Assembly: GCA_944331715.1 (NCBI GenBank)
Contig: CALVIP010000003.1
Span: forward strand, 1-62,796
DNA: 62,796 nucleotides
Source of the DNA: an uncultured Bacilli bacterium
GTDB lineage: Bacteria; Bacillota_I; Bacilli_A; RF39; UBA660
Reading direction: 5' to 3'
In this document: positions 2,414 through 48,733 of the stretch, piece after piece
How positions within the stretch are numbered: the stretch's first letter is position 1
Layout of the letters: each line of letters opens with the position of its first letter
The notes under the pieces: generated by a model
Seen by the model: only the letters and a program-made list of their open reading frames with translations
Database searches by the model: none
What the model was told of the DNA's origin: nothing
Program-made: the position numbers and the translations under genes

Positions 2414-4780
2414 TTACTTATCTCTTAATTCTACATCTAAAGATGTTGTTACTTTCTTAATGATATTATCAAATACATTCATAACTTCTTCATCAGTTAA
2501 TGTTCTATTACTATCCATAAATGTTAGATTATAGGCAATAGACTTTTTATTATTATCAAGTTTTTCATAAACATCGAATACCTTAATGTCACTAAGTAAT
2601 CTTCCTCCTGCTTTTTTAATAACTGTCTCTACTTCACTTGATAGCATAGCCTTAGGAACAATGAATGCTACATCTTTAACGATTGTTGGATATTTTGATG
2701 CTTCTTTATATTTTAATGGTTTAACTTTAGTCATTAAAGCATTTAAAGATAACTCACAAACATATACTTCATCCTTACATACTTTAGGATGAACTCTACC
2801 CATAATACCTATTCTTTTACGGTCAAGTAAAATATCTGCAGAAATTCCTGGATGTAAGTCTGAGACATTACTTTTAACAAAACTATAACGGTTTTTAAAG
2901 CCTAGATAATCAAGAATACTTTCTACTATTCCTTTCATTAGATAGAAGTCTACTTTCATAGAGCCTTTCCAAGAATTAGTAATATAATTACCTTTCATTA
3001 AGAATGCAATTTTAGATTCCTCAGTATAAGCTTTATCATAAGTTTTAGCGATCTCATAGATATTTATATCTTCTACTTTACGAGCTTTATTATAATTATA
3101 AACATTCATTAATGATGGAATTAAACTTGTTCTAACAACACTCTTATCAATACTCATTGGATTAGGTAAAGTAATTCTTTCTTTTTCTTCATAATCAAAG
3201 CTAGAAGCCATTGAAGGTGATACTAAAGTATAAGTTTTAACTTCATTAAGTCCTAAACTTCTAAGACGTTTAGATATAGCTTTACGGTATTTAACATCTC
3301 CAACATACTCACCACGTTTTACTTCAATATTAGGAAGAGTTCCTTTTATATTTTGATAACCATAAAGTCTACCAATCTCTTCTGCTATATCATTAACATT
3401 AGAGTCAATATCTAGTCTTCTACTAGGAATAGTTACAGTAAATTTACCATCTTTAATAGTATATGGAAAGTCTAGTCTTTCTAACTCATGTTTCATATCT
3501 TTTTCATCTATTTTAAGTCCTAGCATTTTGTCTACTTCAATAGGATAGAATTCTACTACTTTAGGAGTCTTATCTAGTTTATCGTGCATAACAGTTCCAG
3601 AAAGAACAGTTGCATTAGCATATTTTTCTAATAAGTGGCAAGCTCTATCAAGGGCCATATTAGTATATTCGTAACTTAATCCTTTACCATATCTTATACT
3701 AGCTTCACTTCTAAGGTCTAAATGACTAGCAGTATATCTAATACTAACAGGATCAAAGATAGCTGCTTCTATCAAGATATTTTTAGTAGTAGGTTCTACT
3801 TCAGTATTAAGTCCTCCCATAACACCGGCAACACAAATAGCGTCACTACCATTACTAATAACAATATCACTATTTTTTAAAGTTCTTTCCTTACCATCTA
3901 AAGTAGTAATTAACTCATTATCTTTAGCATCTCTAACTAATATTTTATCACCTAGAGAGTCTTTATCAAAGAAATGAAGTGGTTGACCAAACTCTAACAT
4001 AACATAATTAGAAATATCAACAACATTGTTTATTGGTCTCATACCTACTGATAATAATCTTCTTTTAATAAAATCAGGTGACTCTTTAATTTCAACATTA
4101 GTAACCATCTTTGCTAAGTAATAAGGACATTTAGGTGTATCAACTTCTAGTTTAAAATGATTATTAACGTTATCTTTATCTTCTTTATAAGATAAATCAG
4201 GTAATTTTACTTTTCTATTTAATATTGCAGATATTTCATAAGCAAAACCAATATGATAGTAACAGTCATTATTACGATGTTTATGAATATCTAACTCATA
4301 TAAAGTATCTTCTAATCCTAAATATACAAGAGGGTCTTTTCCAACAGGAGCAGTTTCAGTTAATTCTTCAATACCTTTAGCATAAGTCTCATCAGTCTTC
4401 TCTTCAAGACCTAATTCATATAAAGCACAAATCATACCATTAGATTCTACTCCTCTAATCTTACTTGATTTGATAGCAAAGTCACCTGGAAGCACAGCAC
4501 CTGGTAATGCTACTATTACTTTAAGTCCTTCACGTACATTAGGAGCACCACAAACTATTTGTTGTAGTTCTTCTTTACCTATATCTACCTGACATAAATG
4601 TAAATGGTCACTATCTGGATGGTCTATACAACTAACAACTTTACCAATTACTAAATTATCTATTTTATTAGTAATAACTTTTTCAATATTAATACCAGAT
4701 TCTGTTATTTTAACTGCAAGCTTCTCTAAATCTTGATCACTTATATCAATATAATCTTTTACCCATTCTAAATTAATCAT
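2414..4780 (-). CDS. pheT: Phenylalanyl-tRNA synthetase beta subunit
   Basis: VCGAPNV tRNA-binding domain, RPINNVVDISNYVMLEFGQPLHFFD, FDX-ACB C-terminus; start refined to MINLEWV. Confidence 0.97.
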   Translation of the reverse strand: MINLEWVKDYIDISDQDLEKLAVKITESGINIEKVITNKIDNLVIGKVVSCIDHPDSDHLHLCQVDIGKEELQQIVCGAPNVREGLKVIVALPGAVLPGDFAIKSSKIRGVESNGMICALYELGLEEKTDETYAKGIEELTETAPVGKDPLVYLGLEDTLYELDIHKHRNNDCYYHIGFAYEISAILNRKVKLPDLSYKEDKDNVNNHFKLEVDTPKCPYYLAKMVTNVEIKESPDFIKRRLLSVGMRPINNVVDISNYVMLEFGQPLHFFDKDSLGDKILVRDAKDNELITTLDGKERTLKNSDIVISNGSDAICVAGVMGGLNTEVEPTTKNILIEAAIFDPVSIRYTASHLDLRSEASIRYGKGLSYEYTNMALDRACHLLEKYANATVLSGTVMHDKLDKTPKVVEFYPIEVDKMLGLKIDEKDMKHELERLDFPYTIKDGKFTVTIPSRRLDIDSNVNDIAEEIGRLYGYQNIKGTLPNIEVKRGEYVGDVKYRKAISKRLRSLGLNEVKTYTLVSPSMASSFDYEEKERITLPNPMSIDKSVVRTSLIPSLMNVYNYNKARKVEDINIYEIAKTYDKAYTEESKIAFLMKGNYITNSWKGSMKVDFYLMKGIVESILDYLGFKNRYSFVKSNVSDLHPGISADILLDRKRIGIMGRVHPKVCKDEVYVCELSLNALMTKVKPLKYKEASKYPTIVKDVAFIVPKAMLSSEVETVIKKAGGRLLSDIKVFDVYEKLDNNKKSIAYNLTFMDSNRTLTDEEVMNVFDNIIKKVTTSLDVELRDK

Positions 4781-9088: not shown

Positions 9089-10027
9089 CTAAAGTAAAGT
9101 AATAGTCTTTATATTAAAATTATTATTTGTATGAGTACTAAATATTAATTGTCCCTTACTATTATCAAAAGCATTTATAATTTCTTCAATTATTCTATTA
9201 TCTAAAAAACTATCTATATCATCTATTATTAGGGCTTTCTCTTCTTCAGAGGCTTTTAAAATAAAAGGTATTATGGCAAAGACTAATCTATTACTAGAAG
9301 ATTCATCTCCATAATCTATTATATAGCTCTTATTATTTAAATTATGCTTAAATTTAGTAGTATAACCAACTTCTTTTCCTAACATAATGCTTTTAACATT
9401 ATAATCTATAATATTAACATTAATCTTTTTATAGAAGTCTAAAACATAAGGTTTTAACTTATTATTAGTATCTCTACTATATAGATTAAATGATGGTTCA
9501 ATAAGACTTTTTACATCTAAACAAATCCCTATAGTTGATGTTAAGAAGGTATATACTTCGTTCAAATCATCTTTAGCATAGCTTAAAAAGAGTCTATTAT
9601 CTAAAACAAGTTTAGATAGTTTTTTTAATCTTTTATCATTAAAGGTATAACTTTTATTTACTCTTTCAAAGATAATATTTTCTTCTTCAAAATCATAATA
9701 ATATAAATATTCTTTACTTACTTGTTTTTTATTAATGGTAAAGCCATAAATATATTTAGTGTTATTTTTAAGAAAAGTTATCTTAAAACTACTAGGTTTA
9801 TCATTATACATAAAAGTATTCAAGTAATTATTATTGTTTTTAAGTATTAAACTAACAGAATTAAGTATCTTTAATAAGTTAGTTTTACCACTATTAAAGC
9901 CTCCATTTATATTAACAATATTACTATCCATATCAAAAGTTATTTTATCCTTAAATGAGAAAAGATTCTCTACTTCTACTTCTAAAATCATAACTCCTCC
10001 CAGAAAATTAAAATAGTGCCTTAGCAC
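9089..10027 (-). CDS. Second, divergent AAA_21-type ATPase
   Basis: GGFNSGKT Walker A, ESSSN degenerate signature, IIDDID Walker B, FSTH; probable start 9991 (RBS GGAGGAG). Confidence 0.75.
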   Translation of the reverse strand: MLRHYFNFLGGVMILEVEVENLFSFKDKITFDMDSNIVNINGGFNSGKTNLLKILNSVSLILKNNNNYLNTFMYNDKPSSFKITFLKNNTKYIYGFTINKKQVSKEYLYYYDFEEENIIFERVNKSYTFNDKRLKKLSKLVLDNRLFLSYAKDDLNEVYTFLTSTIGICLDVKSLIEPSFNLYSRDTNNKLKPYVLDFYKKINVNIIDYNVKSIMLGKEVGYTTKFKHNLNNKSYIIDYGDESSSNRLVFAIIPFILKASEEEKALIIDDIDSFLDNRIIEEIINAFDNSKGQLIFSTHTNNNFNIKTITLL

Positions 10028-10029
10028 TA

Positions 10030-10575
10030 TTATACAGTCATTAATTCTTTTTCTTTATCTTTATAGATATTATCTATATCTTTATTATAGTCATTAACTA
10101 AATCTTGAACATCCTTCATCATACCTTTTGCTTCATCTTCAGGTAGTTCCATCTTCTCTATCTTTTCATTAGCTTCATGTCTAATATTTCTAATAGATAC
10201 TTTAGCATCCTCTGCCATGGCTTTAACTTGTTTAGTAAGTTCACGTCTTCGCTCTTCTGTTAAAGCAGGTATAACTATTCTAATAGTCTCTCCATCATTA
10301 GATGGATTAAATCCTAGATTAGCGGCAATAATAGCTTTCTCAATATTACCTAAGCATCCTCTATCAAAAGGTTTAATCAATAACTGAGTCGCTTCAGGAA
10401 CTGATATAGTTGCAAGGCTCTTTAATGGAGTCATAGATCCATAATAATCTACCATAACACCATCTAAACTAGATGGGTTAGCACGCCCTGCTCTAACTGT
10501 AGTAAAGCGTTTCTCTAAGTTAGCAAGAGTTCCTTTCATTTTATTTTCAATATCACTAATAAATTCACTATTCAT
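10030..10575 (-). CDS. frr: Ribosome recycling factor
   Basis: RAGRANP, GETIRIVIPALTEERRREL, SIRNIR. Confidence 0.97.
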   Translation of the reverse strand: MNSEFISDIENKMKGTLANLEKRFTTVRAGRANPSSLDGVMVDYYGSMTPLKSLATISVPEATQLLIKPFDRGCLGNIEKAIIAANLGFNPSNDGETIRIVIPALTEERRRELTKQVKAMAEDAKVSIRNIRHEANEKIEKMELPEDEAKGMMKDVQDLVNDYNKDIDNIYKDKEKELMTV

Positions 10576-10678
10576 ATAAATATCTCTCCTCAGTTAAATT
10601 TTACTATAAAGAAAAATAAATATCAATAACTTTATATATTTTTTAGAACAAGTAAAGTATCAAAAAGGCAAAAAAAAG

Positions 10679-10711
10679 CACGGCCAAAAGACTTCGCCTT
10701 TTAGGGCCGTG
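10679..10711 (-). terminator. GC-rich hairpin with GAA triloop (terminator and/or DGR cis hairpin)
   Basis: CACGGCC-CT-AAAAGGC-GAA-GTCTTTT-GGCCGTG followed by T-tract. Confidence 0.65.
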
Positions 10712-10727
10712 TTTTACTACTTCTTTA

Positions 10728-12191
10728 TTAACTTTGCAAAATATACGGATTACTACTACTTCCATCACCGTCAACAATCTTGATACTAGATTTTAGAAAG
10801 ACGACTGGGCGGACACCATAAGCATTGTCCGTAGTACGGCTGTTAACATATCCAGCGTAGTTCAGATCAAACACACTGCCAGAACCAGAGGCGCGGGGAG
10901 TGATTGTCCATTGATATGCTGAGTTAAATATCCAGTCATTATTGTAACAATCACTTACACTATCCCAACTATATAATTCTTTATTTGTTAAACAAGTATT
11001 TCTATCAGTTGTAGTTCCTCCACTTGTCGCATATCCATAATCACTCGGATACATTAATCCTACTTTTCCAGTCCAACTTGTACTTCTGCCACTATATACT
11101 GTTGTTCCTCTTTCTCTTTCGTAAAACATTGATGCAGTAACATCATCATTAGTACTACTTCCTCCTAAATACCAAAGTGTGTCTCCTATCATACTTTTGG
11201 CATCACTAGTTAAACTATTGGTCCAATAATCCCCATTATTTAAATTAGTATTTAACGTTGCATTAGGCCAATCATTTATGTTATTAGAGTCCCAAGTAAT
11301 ATCTCCAATAGATTCATTTCTTATTAATTTAAGTCTTTGTTCAACATTACCTGTTCCATCATCTACACTAAATACTCCTATTATTCTCCATGTTTCATTA
11401 TTAAAAGTTACATAGTTATTAGGATTTGCTCCTATATATCTATAATCTGTTAAAGCAGTTGTTTGTTCTGTGGCAGGATGAGAGAAAGTCCACATCTCTT
11501 TTTGTTGTTCACTTGTTGCACTATTGAAGTCTAAATCTTCTGGATTTGCTTTTGCAAGTATTGTATCAACTGCTGTTGATACTGGTTTATCTCCATCTTT
11601 TCCATAGACATTTATTTTTACTGAAAATGTTAAATTTCCTCCATCTCCTTGAGGATTATAATCTTCATCTACCCACATTCTTAACCTATAATTATTACTT
11701 TCACTACTACTCATACTACTAGTATATAAACTCATCTCTCCTGTTGGTCTTCCTGTAAAGTTATTGGCACTTGTCTCTTCATTATAGACTTCTGGTGTCA
11801 TTAACTCTTCTTCACCATCTTCTGTTAATCTAGTTAAATATAATTTTATATTAGAACCATCTATCTTCCTATCACTAGTTGTTACATCTTTAGCAGATAT
11901 CTCATAGTTAATATTAACATCTCCACTAATTTGACTACTTACTGTAAAATCAAAGTATTCTCCTTCAGTTAGTCTTTTCTTCCCAGTTGCATCTGTTGTT
12001 GGTAATGCTCCATTTAAACTTATTGTATTATCTGTTTCTTCATATGTCATTGTTATTGAACCTGTCGTTATACTATTTAATTTTGTTCCTGTTTTACTAT
12101 AACTAAAGGCCGCATAGCTTACCCCTATTATTGCTAGTATCATTACAATTATTAATCCTACTATTATTAATTCTTTCTTTTCCTTTACCAT
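10728..12191 (-). CDS. Secreted/surface protein with SipW-type signal and C-terminal GVRP (CLec-like) domain; candidate DGR target
   Basis: Hydrophobic N-terminus ending SYA; C-terminal WTITP...AYGVRPVVFLK; GC-shifted 3' region. Confidence 0.75.
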   Translation of the reverse strand: MVKEKKELIIVGLIIVMILAIIGVSYAAFSYSKTGTKLNSITTGSITMTYEETDNTISLNGALPTTDATGKKRLTEGEYFDFTVSSQISGDVNINYEISAKDVTTSDRKIDGSNIKLYLTRLTEDGEEELMTPEVYNEETSANNFTGRPTGEMSLYTSSMSSSESNNYRLRMWVDEDYNPQGDGGNLTFSVKINVYGKDGDKPVSTAVDTILAKANPEDLDFNSATSEQQKEMWTFSHPATEQTTALTDYRYIGANPNNYVTFNNETWRIIGVFSVDDGTGNVEQRLKLIRNESIGDITWDSNNINDWPNATLNTNLNNGDYWTNSLTSDAKSMIGDTLWYLGGSSTNDDVTASMFYERERGTTVYSGRSTSWTGKVGLMYPSDYGYATSGGTTTDRNTCLTNKELYSWDSVSDCYNNDWIFNSAYQWTITPRASGSGSVFDLNYAGYVNSRTTDNAYGVRPVVFLKSSIKIVDGDGSSSNPYILQS

Positions 12192-12367
12192 TTTATACTC
12201 CTCCTATTTTTTATAGTCTATCCCAATCATTATCTTTTATACTGTTTTAATATTAACACATATAATCCTTTATATCAATTATTTTGACACTATAAAAGAA
12301 CAGAATTTATACTTATCCTGCTCTTATATCATAATGAAAGAAAGTAATTTTATTACTTATATTAGGG

Positions 12368-12481
12368 TTAAATGCCCCCCCCCCAGGTAACAAGTTGTAA
12401 ACTTGAGGTTTTAGAAAAATGACGAATTAATTTCCCCCAGAATTGACAATTTATTTTACCCTGATAAATTAAATTAGCCAT
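12368..12481 (-). CDS. 37-aa ORF ending in a G10 tract
   Basis: RBS AAGAAAGGAAG; MANLIYQGKINCQFWGKLIRHFSKTSSLQLVTWGGGI*; C10 on plus strand at 12375-12384. Confidence 0.45.
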   Translation of the reverse strand: MANLIYQGKINCQFWGKLIRHFSKTSSLQLVTWGGGI

Positions 12482-12568
12482 ATCTACTTCTTCCTTTCTT
12501 TATCTTTGTTAACTTAATAGTACCATAATCTTCAAAGACAATCAATAACGATTTTACTTACTTTACAC

Positions 12569-13570
12569 TTATATTAAATTACTTCTTTTATAAGTACTTA
12601 CTTTAGAATCTAAATATATATCAACTGTTCCTTTATTAACCATCTTAATAAAGCCTAACCCATTAACACATATATCTTCATCATAACCCATTTCATAAGT
12701 TCTTTTCTGTAAATCTTTTAAATCATCATGCTTACTTGATATTCTTCTAATCTTTAAATCATTAGACATATAGAAAGTAAAACTATTCTTTTCTCCTTCT
12801 ACATAATCCATTCTAAAGAAGTTATCTACTATTACACTTTGTCCTTTCCTAAGTTGAAAAGTCTTAGGTTTAATCTCTTTTTTAGGACTTATCTTCTTAA
12901 ATTCATCATCACTAATATAATTAATTATACTACCACTATCAACAAGACCTGGTGTATCTATAAGAGTTAAATACTCATTTATTTCTATTTCTACTGTATT
13001 TAATGTAGTAGAAGGAAGTGGTGATATAGTAAGTTCTCTATCGCTAGTAGAATAATTTCTTAATAATTTATTTATTAAAGTACTCTTACCAGCATTAGTA
13101 TGACCTACTACATAGACATTATTAGTAGTCTGATATAGTTTTATTTGTTTTAATAAATAATCTATATTATAGTTTTTCTCACTACTTATAACTATTACTT
13201 TATCAAAGATATCATTATCTTTAAAATAATATATTAGTTTATCATCATTTACTGACTTAGGTAGTACATCTCTTTTATTTAGTACTAATATCATCTTATT
13301 AGGAATAATCTCTCTAATCTTATTAATATCTTCTTCTATATTAAGTAAATCTGCTATATAAAGTACTAAATCTTTAGTCTCTCCTACACTTTTAAGTATC
13401 TCTAAATACTCATCATTACTTTTAGTAACTACTTGATACTCTCCATAGTTTTTAATTCTAAAACATCTTTGACAGTATTCTTTATCTAAACTAGTAGTAT
13501 AACCTTCCCCTAAGATATTCTCATCTTGAAGCTTAACTCCACATCCAAGACAGTACTTCTCACTATTCAT
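12569..13570 (-). CDS. yqeH: Ribosome biogenesis GTPase YqeH
   Basis: CxxC...CQRCF zinc finger, circularly permuted NKRD, GHTNAGKS, DTPG. Confidence 0.93.
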   Translation of the reverse strand: MNSEKYCLGCGVKLQDENILGEGYTTSLDKEYCQRCFRIKNYGEYQVVTKSNDEYLEILKSVGETKDLVLYIADLLNIEEDINKIREIIPNKMILVLNKRDVLPKSVNDDKLIYYFKDNDIFDKVIVISSEKNYNIDYLLKQIKLYQTTNNVYVVGHTNAGKSTLINKLLRNYSTSDRELTISPLPSTTLNTVEIEINEYLTLIDTPGLVDSGSIINYISDDEFKKISPKKEIKPKTFQLRKGQSVIVDNFFRMDYVEGEKNSFTFYMSNDLKIRRISSKHDDLKDLQKRTYEMGYDEDICVNGLGFIKMVNKGTVDIYLDSKVSTYKRSNLI

Positions 13571-14125: not shown

Positions 14126-15535
14126 CTAGTTATTTAATTTCTGTCTTATAGGCATAGTATCTATATCTAAAGAATCAAAACTATAACCATTACTTAAACA
14201 ATAGTCAATTATATTACTTAAAGCATCTCTTGTATAAGTCTTAGTATCATGCATTAAGATAACATTATATTTATCATGAGATATACTATTAACTACACTA
14301 TTATATAGTTTATGAGGATTAGTTGCAAAAGAAGCATCTCCACTATCAACATTCCAATCATAGTATTGATAATCTTTATTTAAGACTTCTTTAGTTAAAG
14401 TACTCATAATACCTTCGCTATATTTTTTAGAAATGGTATTACTAGAACCCCCTGGGAATCTAATTAATTTAGAATCAACTCCTGTTATATCATAAATTCT
14501 CTTATGAACTTGTTCTAAATCATTAAAGTAGTTATCTCTTGATGCATAAATAATATCATATTTATGAGATGCAGTATGAATACCAATAGAATGTCCTTCA
14601 TCTACAATTCTCTTAATTAAAGAATCATTTCCATTCATCGTTACAAAGAATGTCGCTTTAACTCCTTTTTCTTTTAAGATATCTAAAATTACATCAGTAG
14701 TTCCATCTCTTGGACCATCATCAAATGTAAGATAGATAGTATTAGTTTTTAATGGTTCTCTTACTTTAACATTTCTTACTATTTTACTTTTATTATTACT
14801 ACTATCACTAACTTCATAGGTTACTCTATAATCACCTACTTTAGTATTATCTATATCATTAGTTATTTTAATATTAGAAGTTAAATCACTATCACAGTTA
14901 TCACTAATAGTTACATTATCTTCTATATAAGGCTCATTTAAGTTTAAAAAGATATTATCATCTCCATTTAGTGTTATAGAAGGAGAATCTACATCTTTAG
15001 CAATTAACTTTCTTACAACTTCATTCTTATTACCACTACTATCAAAAACTATATAAATAATTTTATCTTTCTCTTTTTTTACTTTAACTTTATCAGTAAT
15101 ATCTTTATCTACATTATCATAAGCGGTATATCCAAGTTCTTTATACTCCCCATTAGGACAATAGTATTCTTTTAGATTACCATTTAGTTTAATTTTAGGT
15201 TTCTCTATATCTTTTACACTTATTTCTTTAGAGATATGATAAGTAAATATATTATCTTTATAAGTATAATTTATATTATAATCTCTATTTTTATTAGTAT
15301 TTATCTTATCAAGTGGTTTAACTATTCTTTTACTTCCAAACATATTACTTATAGTTATACCTTTATCAGCATAAGAAGAATTAATATTAACTATTTCTTT
15401 TAGGGGAGCATTTAAAGTTATTCTAGGAACAAATAAAAGTGCAAAAGTAAAAAGGACAAGTACTAAAGTAACACTAATATTTATAAAATACTCACTTTTA
15501 GAAACCCTTCTTTTTTTAATCTTCTTCTTAAGCAT
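14126..15535 (-). CDS. Membrane-anchored polysaccharide deacetylase with Ig-like repeats
   Basis: N-terminal TM; repeated D.EKP.I.LNG/AYDNVD units; LTFDDGP, HTASH, RFPGG, LMHD. Confidence 0.88.
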   Translation of the reverse strand: MLKKKIKKRRVSKSEYFINISVTLVLVLFTFALLFVPRITLNAPLKEIVNINSSYADKGITISNMFGSKRIVKPLDKINTNKNRDYNINYTYKDNIFTYHISKEISVKDIEKPKIKLNGNLKEYYCPNGEYKELGYTAYDNVDKDITDKVKVKKEKDKIIYIVFDSSGNKNEVVRKLIAKDVDSPSITLNGDDNIFLNLNEPYIEDNVTISDNCDSDLTSNIKITNDIDNTKVGDYRVTYEVSDSSNNKSKIVRNVKVREPLKTNTIYLTFDDGPRDGTTDVILDILKEKGVKATFFVTMNGNDSLIKRIVDEGHSIGIHTASHKYDIIYASRDNYFNDLEQVHKRIYDITGVDSKLIRFPGGSSNTISKKYSEGIMSTLTKEVLNKDYQYYDWNVDSGDASFATNPHKLYNSVVNSISHDKYNVILMHDTKTYTRDALSNIIDYCLSNGYSFDSLDIDTMPIRQKLNN

Positions 15536-31393: not shown

Positions 31394-32617
31394 TTATTTA
31401 TCAGTCCTATGTTTAGTATAAGTTTTCATTTTATTTATAAAATCATTATTTTTACTTATAGTATCTTCATCAAAAGATTGCCCATACATATTAAAGTAAT
31501 TTTCATATAAACACGTTAAAAAGATACAATAATTTATAAAATTATCTTTTCCTAAATTATTATTAATATAAGAAATGCTATTATTAATTGCAGAATAATC
31601 AAATAGTTCTCTATAATTATCTAATAAAGGATTAACTAAAGATAGATATAAATCATAAGCACTCTTATAAGAAATATTATTATTATCATCTAAATCAAAG
31701 ATATAAATATTATCCTCCCTTAATCTTTTAAATAAACTTCTCGCTTTTTCCTGTGTTCTAAACTCATTAAAGATACTATAATCTTTATTTATTATAAAAC
31801 TACAATGTTTATCACCCATTTCACTTACATGTATAAGTTCATGTAAAAGATTTATATCAAGACATCTATCATGATATTTTTTTAAAAGTGGAAATGAAAT
31901 AAAAGTCTTAGAATACTCTTTAGATAGTGATGTAATAGCAGTTACATCACTATCAAAATCTTCTTCAAAATAAACTATCTTTCTTGCAAGAAGTATTTTC
32001 TTATAAAAAGGTATATCCCCTAATCTATCTAAGATATTTTTACCAAAGATAGAGCTTTTTATAACATTTCTCTCTAATACTTTCTCTTGTCTTTTTAAAA
32101 AGTCTATACAATCATCTAGTTTTTCTTCATCTAATAAAGGAATAATTCCTATTCTTTTACAAGTATCTATATAATCTTGTTGTAATTCTAAAAGTAAGTC
32201 TCTTACTTCATTATCATAAGTTAAATATTTTTTATATTTTTTATCAAAAGCATCAAATCTAAGTCCTAGAATAGCTTCTTTATTTTTATTAAATACATCA
32301 TCACTAATATTTAATAGTTCTTTTAAATATCTAAGAGTATAATCATCTATTTCATCTTGTAACTTTTCTCCCTTACTCATATAGTCATCCATTAATGATT
32401 TATAATATTTTAAATTATCTAAACTACTATCTAAATTATACAAGCTTTCATAAGTAACATCAGGAGTTGAATCAAAGAAGTAGAAAGCATCTTTAATTCT
32501 TGTAGTGATTAAGTCTTTAAAACTTTTATGATAGGAACTAGCAATTAAATCTATTAGATAATCTTGATATTCTAAAAATCTCTTGTTAGGGTTTAATAAT
32601 CTATCTAAGTCTTTCAT
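31394..32617 (-). CDS. Hypothetical protein with HEXXH...NE zinc-peptidase-like motif
   Basis: LLHELIHVSE...IFNEFRTQ; start overlaps the obg stop. Confidence 0.65.
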   Translation of the reverse strand: MKDLDRLLNPNKRFLEYQDYLIDLIASSYHKSFKDLITTRIKDAFYFFDSTPDVTYESLYNLDSSLDNLKYYKSLMDDYMSKGEKLQDEIDDYTLRYLKELLNISDDVFNKNKEAILGLRFDAFDKKYKKYLTYDNEVRDLLLELQQDYIDTCKRIGIIPLLDEEKLDDCIDFLKRQEKVLERNVIKSSIFGKNILDRLGDIPFYKKILLARKIVYFEEDFDSDVTAITSLSKEYSKTFISFPLLKKYHDRCLDINLLHELIHVSEMGDKHCSFIINKDYSIFNEFRTQEKARSLFKRLREDNIYIFDLDDNNNISYKSAYDLYLSLVNPLLDNYRELFDYSAINNSISYINNNLGKDNFINYCIFLTCLYENYFNMYGQSFDEDTISKNNDFINKMKTYTKHRTDK

Positions 32618-47052: not shown

Positions 47053-48733
47053 ACACTTCTTGTATTACTGTTATAATCATAGGTTTTGTTTCCATAGTTT
47101 TATAAAAATATTTACCTAAGACATCTCTTACTTCTGTCTTTATAGCACTATATTCTACTCTCTTAGTATTTTCACTTATATTTTTCTCTATTATTTCTAA
47201 AGATATATTTTTAATCTCATCTACTAAATCTAGATTATCTTTAACATAAATAAAACCTCTTGTTAGAACTTCTGGTCCTGCTAATATCTTTTTAGTCTCT
47301 CTATCTAAAGTACAACTAATAATAACAATACCGTTTTCTCCTAACATTTCTCTATCTTTTAAGACTAAATCTCCAATATCACCATTGCTTTTACCATCTA
47401 TTAGAATTTCATCAACTGGTATATGTTCATTAGTAGGTACAAGATTGCCTTTAATAAACAGAGTTACATCTCCATTTTGCTTTAAGATAATATTATCTTT
47501 AGATATTCCTAAAGATTCTGCAATCTCTGCATTAGCATATTGATTACGATATTCTCCTTTTACTGGAAAATAATACTTAGGATTCATTATATTTATTAAT
47601 AAAGATAAATCTTCTCTTGATGCATGATGTAACAAGTGTTTCTTACTAGATAAACTAATAGCATTAACACCAAGCATAGCGATATCATCCATAACAGTTG
47701 CAAGACGCTTTTCTATTCCTTCATAAGCAGGTTCTGTTATAAAAATTGTATCATTAGTATTAAGTTTAATAAACTTATCATACCCTTTAATAATTCTTTC
47801 TAAGTTTGCAAAAGGCTTTTCTTTCTCATCTGATATTAATACTACAACATCTTTATCTTCTAAATTATTTAAATCTCCAATTACTCTTCTATCAATAGTT
47901 AAATAATTATTCTTTATGGCATAGTTAATAGTATTTTGTAGAGAATGACCCATAATAACAATCTTTCTATGAGTCTTACTAACTTCATCAAATATCTCTT
48001 GTATTCTATAGAAATGAGCAGGAAAAACAGTTGCAATTATTCTCCCTTTATTTCTTGCTAATACATTTCTAATAAAGTCACTTACTCTATTATTAGGACT
48101 AGTATATCCATCACGCTCAGCATACATAGATTCTGCTAAAAGACAAAGTACTCCTTGTTTACCAACATAAGCAAGTTTACCTATATCTGTTTTATATAGA
48201 CCTGTTTCTGTATGATCAAAGGTAAAATCTCCTGTATAAACTATCGCTCCGTCTTTAGTATATAAAACATAGCATAAGGCATCAGGAATAGAATGAGTCA
48301 TAGAAATAGGAAATATACTTTCCCTACCAAACTCTAATTTATGATGTGGTTTAATCTCTATTAAATGACTCTTTTTAATTTCTTGTTCTGTTAAATCTTG
48401 TTTTAATATTTCTAAAGTTAGTTTCGCTCCATATATATTGATTTCTGGAATTTGCTTTAATATATCAGGAACTGCTCCCATATTACCTTCATGACCGTGA
48501 CTTAAAAAGATCCCTTTTATTCTTTTTCTGTTTTTTATTAAATAATCAAAGTTAGGAATAATATAATCTATTCCTAGATTTTTTTCATTATCAAATTTAC
48601 TTCCGGCATCAAATACATAGATGTTTTTATCTACTTCAACAACATACATATTCTTACCATTTTCGTTTAGTCCACCTAAACTAAATATTTTTATTTTACT
48701 CATAAATTCTCCTTTCTTTTTATATAGAAACAA
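47051..48733 (-). CDS. rnj: Ribonuclease J
   Basis: GGLNENGKN, THSIPD, YTGDF, PVKGEYR; metal motif altered to SHGHEGN. Confidence 0.9.
   Translation of the reverse strand: MFLYKKKGEFMSKIKIFSLGGLNENGKNMYVVEVDKNIYVFDAGSKFDNEKNLGIDYIIPNFDYLIKNRKRIKGIFLSHGHEGNMGAVPDILKQIPEINIYGAKLTLEILKQDLTEQEIKKSHLIEIKPHHKLEFGRESIFPISMTHSIPDALCYVLYTKDGAIVYTGDFTFDHTETGLYKTDIGKLAYVGKQGVLCLLAESMYAERDGYTSPNNRVSDFIRNVLARNKGRIIATVFPAHFYRIQEIFDEVSKTHRKIVIMGHSLQNTINYAIKNNYLTIDRRVIGDLNNLEDKDVVVLISDEKEKPFANLERIIKGYDKFIKLNTNDTIFITEPAYEGIEKRLATVMDDIAMLGVNAISLSSKKHLLHHASREDLSLLINIMNPKYYFPVKGEYRNQYANAEIAESLGISKDNIILKQNGDVTLFIKGNLVPTNEHIPVDEILIDGKSNGDIGDLVLKDREMLGENGIVIISCTLDRETKKILAGPEVLTRGFIYVKDNLDLVDEIKNISLEIIEKNISENTKRVEYSAIKTEVRDVLGKYFYKTMETKPMIITVIQEV

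Follow-up and report, generated by a model that had tools for sequence, protein, structure and literature searches.

A probable orphan variable region of a diversity-generating retroelement at the 3' end of a surface-protein gene in an uncultured genus of gut Bacilli

The chromosomal, non-phage diversity-generating retroelement (DGR) of Treponema denticola (TvpA, with seven remote targets) serves an adjacent target and scattered paralogous surface-protein genes from one template repeat (TR), and the C-terminal variable regions (VRs) of these genes follow an A-to-N pattern (PMC5758913, PMC6602519). DGRs that carry Avd together with a MutS-domain-I-like (MSL) gene, and remote targets, have been described by Wu et al. 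2018 (PMC5758913). Their architecture D is found, for example, in Legionella pneumophila (LdtA), with a small MSL gene, Avd, and a surface-exposed target with a C-terminal VR. DUF6273 domains with a C-terminal VR are known DGR targets of Faecalibacterium prophages (PMC11792537). Here we analyse a stretch of 62,796 nucleotides from an uncultured Bacilli bacterium (contig CALVIP010000003.1 of assembly GCA_944331715.1, referred to as the window) and, in it, a GC-rich patch in which a preliminary description had seen a DGR VR diversified in trans. We conclude, with a probability of roughly 0.88, that positions 10,806-10,901 are a DGR VR at the 3' end of a gene for a membrane-anchored surface protein, a remote target that was written by a cassette of the type found in sister species and that is now a probable orphan.

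The resemblance of this locus to the described systems is partial in each case. Like the T. denticola DGR, it is chromosomal and non-phage, and the TR of its genus serves an adjacent target plus scattered paralogues with C-terminal VRs of the A-to-N pattern. The Treponema system, however, has an FGE-sulfatase/CLec1 domain and an HRDC accessory protein where this genus has a DUF6273-like domain, MSL and Avd; in this genus the TR lies downstream of the reverse transcriptase (RT) gene, and the cassette is missing from the assembled genome of the window. The Legionella DGR also combines a small MSL gene with Avd and diversifies the C-terminus of a surface-exposed protein, but its target is a DUF1566/CLec2 lipoprotein and its gene order and TR position are different, whereas the host here is a reduced-genome genus of gut Bacilli in which no fewer than three RT lineages occur and each genome has many targets. 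The Faecalibacterium targets likewise have the VR at the C-terminal end of a DUF6273 domain, but are phage tail or receptor-binding proteins diversified in cis (PMC11792537). The window protein is instead cellular and membrane-anchored, its gene has housekeeping genes on either side, and the protein scores below the Pfam cut-off for DUF6273. With the DGR of Bordetella phage BPP-1 (Mtd, Avd, TR, Brt) we assume a common mechanism of adenine-specific mutagenic retrohoming, a GC-rich 3' element of the VR that is common to the TR, and Avd. Unlike in BPP-1, a hairpin with a GAAA loop at 4-34 bp past the VR is lacking, the RT gene precedes the TR, an MSL gene is added, and the target is remote.

The VR was aligned without gaps to TRs of sister species of Candidatus Onthousia, uncultured Bacilli of the chicken gut; all the TRs compared come from these species and not from the source genome. 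(Genomes, contigs and loci are cited below by G, C and L numbers; contigs given without a genome are those of the source assembly.) The closest orthologue (89% amino-acid identity) is that of G023, and relative to the TR of this species the VR is changed at 16 of 34 A sites and at 0 of 62 others. With the TR of G057, 76 positions of 93 match and 17 do not, and all 17 mismatches fall on template adenines, with 0 of 59 elsewhere; the chance that 17 mismatches would all hit the 34 A sites of 93 is P=1.4e-9. Within AAY codons only the first two positions are changed. With its 34 adenines, which include 12 AAY codons, the TR would by calculation allow the 32-residue patch roughly 1e17-1e18 protein variants. 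Other alleles behave in the same way: that of L060, an ENA contig with the same locus and a 94%-identical protein, has 20 A-site changes and no others, and that of G050 has 17 and no others. Over seven alleles of this VR class (that of the window plus six from other genomes), 114 of 238 A-site cells and 12 of 434 non-A cells are changed. Because the differences from the relatives' TR fall on template adenines only, we regard the VR as DGR-written. The preliminary description had placed a DGR VR in a gene with no RT in the window and had pointed to a template differing only at adenines, beside an RT gene, as the thing to look for; in the relatives such a template does stand beside a DGR-type RT, and this part of the description holds. 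The TR is present in 5 of 185,579 species genomes, all of them in this genus, and the window VR allele is unique among the alleles seen.

The patch is also hypervariable with respect to its surroundings. Orthologues share 69-79% identity over the VR, compared with 84-95% over the 5' part of the gene and 95-100% over the 78 nt that follow the VR; in the protein alignment the variable block lies between an invariant WTITP and GVRPVVFLKSSIKIVDGDG. Its composition is as had been described, with 54% GC in positions 10,800-10,899, NNY in 27 of 32 VR codons read on the minus strand, and a GVRP end (GGT GTC CGC CCA). The VR itself has 53.1% GC, against 31.5% in the rest of the gene and 27.3% in the genome, where 100-nt windows average 27.2% (sd 5.7%) and 0.18% of those sampled reach 50% or more. 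Two details of the earlier account need correction: the gene body, put at about 25% GC, measures about 31%, and the span proposed for the VR (10,679-10,922) does contain it but extends from the hairpin downstream of the gene to just upstream of the VR proper. The VR sits in frame at the 3' end of the target gene, whose open reading frame (ORF) is intact.

At its 3' end the VR carries the GC-rich sequence GGTGTCCGCCCAG, which is common to the TR, and just past it the two part (VR ...CAG/TCGTC, TR ...CAG/CCGAT). In phage BPP-1 the initiation of mutagenic homing (IMH) element, our model for the role of GGTGTCCGCCCAG, is (GC)14 (PMC3240598). By this analogy GGTGTCCGCCCAG is likely an IMH-like element, a putative site at which cDNA integration would be initiated. 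A further block, TCTAAAATC (coding LKS), lies about 10-20 nt after the VR, at 10,780-10,800. It is conserved after all 11 VRs of the genome and invariant at synonymous sites in both VR classes, and may be either a cis signal or a mere mark of shared ancestry.

Table 1. Coordinates of the features discussed. Positions without a contig name are those of the window; C numbers denote contigs of the source assembly.
Feature	Position	Strand	Basis and remarks
DGR variable region (VR), 96 nt, encoding TPRASGSGSVFDLNYAGYVNSRTTDNAYGVRP, residues 431-462 of 487	10806..10901	-	TR comparison
GC-rich 3' end of the VR, common to the TR (GGTGTCCGCCCAG)	10805..10817	-	VR and TR sequences
Target gene	10728..12191	-	ORF list; 487 aa
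Intrinsic terminator: 33-nt hairpin (10679-10711) with GAA loop (10693-10695), then C + T8 (10670-10678)	10670..10711	-	Terminator scan, RNA fold
frr (ribosome recycling factor), downstream neighbour of the target gene	10030..10575	-	ORF list
Promoter-like site upstream of the target gene: TTGATA, 17 nt, TAATAT, with TG	12250..12278	-	Consensus scan alone; function not implied
Second-class VR-like segments	C1:64-159; C5:47686-47780, 48327-48422; C9:30858-30970, 31500-31600		
Second-class VR-like segments	C12:14686-14781, 15319-15414; C23:11641-11736; C71:2239-2334, 2881-2975		

As signature of a DGR RT we used [ILV]GxxxSQ plus YxDD, with an adjoining TR and often with Avd. The RT beside the matching TR is a 363-aa protein with LPIGNMTSQ and YMDD (RT363), and its cassette runs in the order pilin gene, target (469-481 aa), MSL, Avd, RT, TR and Rpn-like gene, followed in G057 by uvrC. 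It was found in G015, G018, G057, G053 and G023. Its TR begins some 10 nt past the RT stop codon, and the intergenic region between target and MSL holds no TR in these cassettes. MSL matches PF01624 (MutS domain I) with 26.6 bits, above the cut-off, and Avd matches bAvd PF22296 with an E value of 3e-9. The targets in these cassettes hardly differ from the window gene in their C-termini, their 3' coding end and their terminator hairpin. In G023 the RT363 gene is split over two contig ends at the IGN motif (C29/C21 of that genome), which may reflect an insertion or an assembly break.

In G057, whose genome is complete in a single contig, one RT363 cassette has a VR beside it, and 63 kb away a paralogous gene of 535 aa carries another. 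This remote VR has 14 A-site changes and 2 others, one of which is at the TR/VR boundary. At such a distance from the cassette it provides, within the genus, a precedent for action in trans. The target gene of the window is itself a non-adjacent target, and the claim that it was diversified in trans stands as a statement about its history. As a statement about the present it is doubtful, for the cognate TR and RT are absent from this assembly and other DGR parts are decayed.

A second class of cassette, built around a 368-aa RT (RT368), was seen in G008, G006, G019, G015 and G017, with the order target, VR, hairpin, TR, small ORF, Avd and RT, and with textbook A-only differences between TR and VR. 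In G017 (locus L026: HAD, YqeH, target, ORF127, Avd, RT, frr) a full RT368 cassette occupies the gap between target and frr. This is the same chromosomal slot as that of the window gene, which lies between yqeH and frr with no DGR cassette alongside; locus L061 has the same layout as the window. A further DGR RT lineage, of 317 aa, occurs in G015:C1, G020, G014, G006, G016 and G004. In many species a TAA lies inside the match to this RT; in G015:C1 the frame is open, and the TAA of the genome-search match is probably an alignment artefact.

The protein encoded by the target gene begins with a hydrophobic membrane anchor or signal (residues ~5-28) that includes the conserved motif GVSYAAF. We take the longer form of this motif, GVSYAAF(S/N)YS (window 12,100-12,191), to resemble the signal region of TasA/camelysin-type proteins. 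Residues ~40-200 form a beta-sandwich domain in the AlphaFold model and by secondary structure, and in Foldseek this domain weakly resembles carbohydrate-binding modules, TasA fibres (8aur) and archaeal bundling pili (7ueg); the full-length model gave Foldseek matches to this N-terminal domain only. The VR lies in the C-terminal domain, where the last 240 aa match DUF6273 (PF19789) over profile positions 27-172 of 172, with E 0.0034 and 17.7 bits, which is below the gathering cut-off of 23.5. A paralogue on contig C5 scores 41.6 bits with the same profile, and the sole significant Foldseek match of the C-terminal model is 9qa6, an IgA peptidase of Thomasclavelia ramosa whose N-terminal domain is DUF6273. 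On these profile and model comparisons, the VR-bearing domain is best described as a divergent relative of DUF6273. Confidence in the structure models is low (predicted local distance difference test, pLDDT, 68 and 57, the latter for the C-terminal model), and in the full model the low-confidence stretch 432-457 coincides with the VR. Looked at for the C-type lectin (CLec) or FGE-sulfatase fold of DGR targets of the Mtd/TvpA type, the target protein had no Pfam match to CLec, FGE or DUF1566, a profile search of PDB sequences gave no match, and Foldseek with these low-confidence models (pLDDT 68 and 57) returned neither Mtd nor TvpA. The family is large, with 4928 homologues at E<=1e-50, and is present in all 53 genomes of the genus with 3-44 matches per genome. 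Some paralogues of the target adjoin genes of the type IV pilin-like kind. Members of the family might assemble into surface fibres that bear a variable domain at the tip.

The source assembly comprises 1.16 Mb in 108 contigs and is 87.6% complete; the window is its contig C3. RT363, Avd of either class and the cognate TR are all absent from these 1.16 Mb. When the whole assembly was scanned without gaps and with tolerance at adenines, the window VR and three paralogue VRs recovered only VRs and A-rich noise, but no TR. RVT_1 (PF00078) matches occur in two places, on contigs C6 and C80. The C6 protein was rejected as a DGR RT, being of the group II intron maturase type (YADD, RGWINYF). On C80, positions 2839-3459 encode the C-terminal 206 aa of a DGR-type RT, cut by the contig end, with AIGNVTSQ; it reads YMDG where its 368-aa relatives, 96-97% identical, read YMDD, owing to a single GAT to GGT change. 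The target, TR and Avd of this RT are not in the assembly. It was also rejected as the writer of the VR, since the TR of its RT368 class in relatives (CGCCGGCCGATTTCAATAATGG...) is unrelated to the VR. NCBIfam holds no DGR-specific model, and there the C80 fragment matched only group II, Drt and retron models, far below their cut-offs.

The site at which relatives carry the RT363 cassette (pilin ... uvrC) has a contiguous counterpart on C12, which holds another, decayed cassette (C12:13758-14510). It consists of a 618-aa target with two VRs of the other class, a TR copy and MSL (127 aa), then the Rpn-like gene, and neither Avd nor RT is found between MSL and the Rpn-like gene. Set against the intact TR of G015:C1, the TR copy shows a 12-nt deletion along with several substitutions; belonging to the other VR class, and decayed, it was rejected as the template of the window VR. 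Because the cassette is absent from the assembly, a decayed one occupies its usual site and the C80 RT reads YMDG, the VR is probably an orphan, a frozen last-written allele. A pattern scan of JGI metagenomes found no VR alleles.

Ten more VR-like segments, of 47-57% GC, occur in paralogous genes of the source genome, some with two per gene. They form the second class (WTLTPYSxSxVRxV...GVRPSINLKS), differ among themselves mainly at the first two bases of NNC codons, and resemble intact TRs beside 317-aa RTs in relatives, for instance in G015:C1. The source assembly holds neither an intact TR nor an RT for them. A paralogue of low GC (35%) without VR signature is found on C39.

The preliminary description had also read the hairpin with a GAA loop downstream of the gene as the DGR hairpin, and this we reject. 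The hairpin (CACGGCC-CU-AAAAGGC-GAA-GUCUUUU-GGCCGUG) lies 16 nt past the stop codon and starts 94 nt after the VR; it has a mixed 16-bp stem, a 3-nt loop and a U8 tail. Published DGR hairpins have a GC stem of 7-10 bp, a 4-nt GRNA loop and a distance of 4-34 bp from the VR (PMC3240598, PMC6602519). The sole hairpin downstream of the VR has none of these, and the feature is common among DGRs rather than universal. We conclude that it is an ordinary intrinsic terminator, and Rfam finds no RNA family in 10,000-12,600. That it might serve DGR target recognition, alone or in addition to termination, we judge improbable. The hairpin is kept after RT363-class VRs (window, G015, G018, G057, G023, L061), with a compensatory C-G to U-A change of the loop-closing pair in G015 and G018; RT368-class VRs have a hairpin of other sequence at a similar distance; and the spacing may vary somewhat (Guo et al., PMC3240598). 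But the conservation among RT363-class targets is explained by the terminator role, the U8 tail is typical of intrinsic terminators, the remote VR of G057, with its A-only pattern, has no such hairpin, and in two-VR paralogues the first VR is inside the coding sequence, far upstream of any terminator. Insertion sequence (IS) elements lie in or beside the hairpin position (equivalent to 10,670-10,725) in G023:C4 (L052), G050:C3 (L053) and the ENA contig L060, and these insertions are the reason why the three contigs end there. The element of L060 is of the IS256 type (Transposase_mut), and an identical IS end sequence is found in G023. Insertions in three independent genomes suggest that the terminator hairpin is a hot spot of IS insertion.

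For the writing of the VR we propose a sister-type cassette of MSL, Avd, RT363 and a 96-nt TR directly downstream of the RT gene. The TR would be transcribed, a complex of RT and Avd would copy it into cDNA with misincorporation opposite template adenines, and the cDNA would then replace the VR, anchored through the common GC-rich 3' end GGTGTCCGCCCAG. We infer these retrohoming steps by analogy with phage BPP-1. It is very doubtful that the VR is still being rewritten with no cassette at the usual site, for example from an unbinned mobile element, with recognition that dispenses with a GRNA hairpin and perhaps proceeds via the TCTAAAATC block, possibly aided by the terminator hairpin ~94 nt downstream. 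If it were so, TCTAAAATC-based recognition would represent a DGR target signal of a new type, and one cassette could serve many VR-bearing paralogues in a genome of 1.1-1.6 Mb (10 here, at least 17 matches in G052).

Several observations weigh against our reading, or against parts of it. The matching TR is known from other species only, which leaves activity in the source genome hypothetical. In an assembly that is 87.6% complete and has no contig below 2,504 nt, a short cassette contig could have been lost, and the upstream half of the C80 cassette, with the RT cut by the contig end, is indeed missing. TR and VR also fit imperfectly within single genomes: the TR of G015 exceeds the VR next to it by 3 nt, TR and VR of G023 differ in length too, and in G057 the VR beside the cassette departs from its own TR at 5 non-A sites while the remote VR fits well. 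Finally, the absence of any change at 62 non-A sites suggests recent writing, which fits a still-active system, a recent loss or an import. A VR that is still actively diversified in trans, by a cassette in the unassembled 12% or on an unbinned short contig, is accordingly a possibility we take seriously, if an unlikely one. For it speak the unblemished non-A sites against the TR of the closest species, in a gene whose 5' part is 8% diverged; the absence of short contigs and of half of another DGR cassette from this metagenome-assembled genome; the tendency of DGR regions to break assemblies in relatives, with RTs at contig ends in G004, G006, G021 and G023; and the working of remote targeting in G057. 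On the other side, RT363, Avd and TR are absent throughout 1.16 Mb, the cassette site of relatives, from the pilin-adjacent target to the Rpn-like gene where readable, is contiguous on C12 but decayed and without Avd and RT, and the sole DGR RT present has a substitution in its catalytic box.

Import of a ready-made VR module, whether through gene conversion or homologous recombination, with a DGR-bearing relative or a paralogue as donor, we consider rather unlikely, although the misfits between TR and VR within genomes (G015 and G023) show that recombination also moves these modules. The conserved N-terminal domain of the paralogues and their near-identical 3' end could support it: the 78 nt after the VR plus the terminator are 95-100% identical across species, against 84-95% for the 5' parts. 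Moreover, the slot between yqeH and frr holds the other VR class with its own cassette in G017, and the C12 target joins the N-terminus of an RT363-class adjacent target to C-terminal domains of another class. However, the window allele has no match among the alleles seen, so that its donor would be unsampled, strong conservation downstream of the VR is also expected of a DGR recognition region, and import would change the place of writing and not the nature of the element. An origin outside DGRs altogether, through amino-acid composition, ordinary diversifying selection or chance, has on its side that the patch has many G, S, R, T and A residues and that no TR was found in the same genome. 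It is effectively excluded by the A-only pattern: template adenines account for all 16-17 differences from the TR, and the 59-62 other sites for none (P about 1e-9), independent alleles (L060, 20/0; G050, 17/0) repeat the pattern, changes touch only the first two positions of AAY codons, and the paralogue of C39 exists at low GC with no such signature.

For general DGR biology the DGR-written, probably orphaned VR of the window is a confirmation and no surprise. It illustrates that in an AT-rich genome a local GC spike, together with NNY codons and a terminal GVRP, can flag a remote DGR target even though the retroelement is absent from both contig and assembly. For this uncultured chicken-gut genus it documents that, in genomes of 1-1.5 Mb, much coding capacity is given to DGR-diversified surface proteins, with at least three RT lineages, MSL plus Avd and tens of paralogous targets, and with cassettes that have been gained, decayed and reshuffled between species. 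The genus is thus a natural system in which to study the persistence of DGR targets after cassette loss, and the gut ligands of DUF6273 domains.

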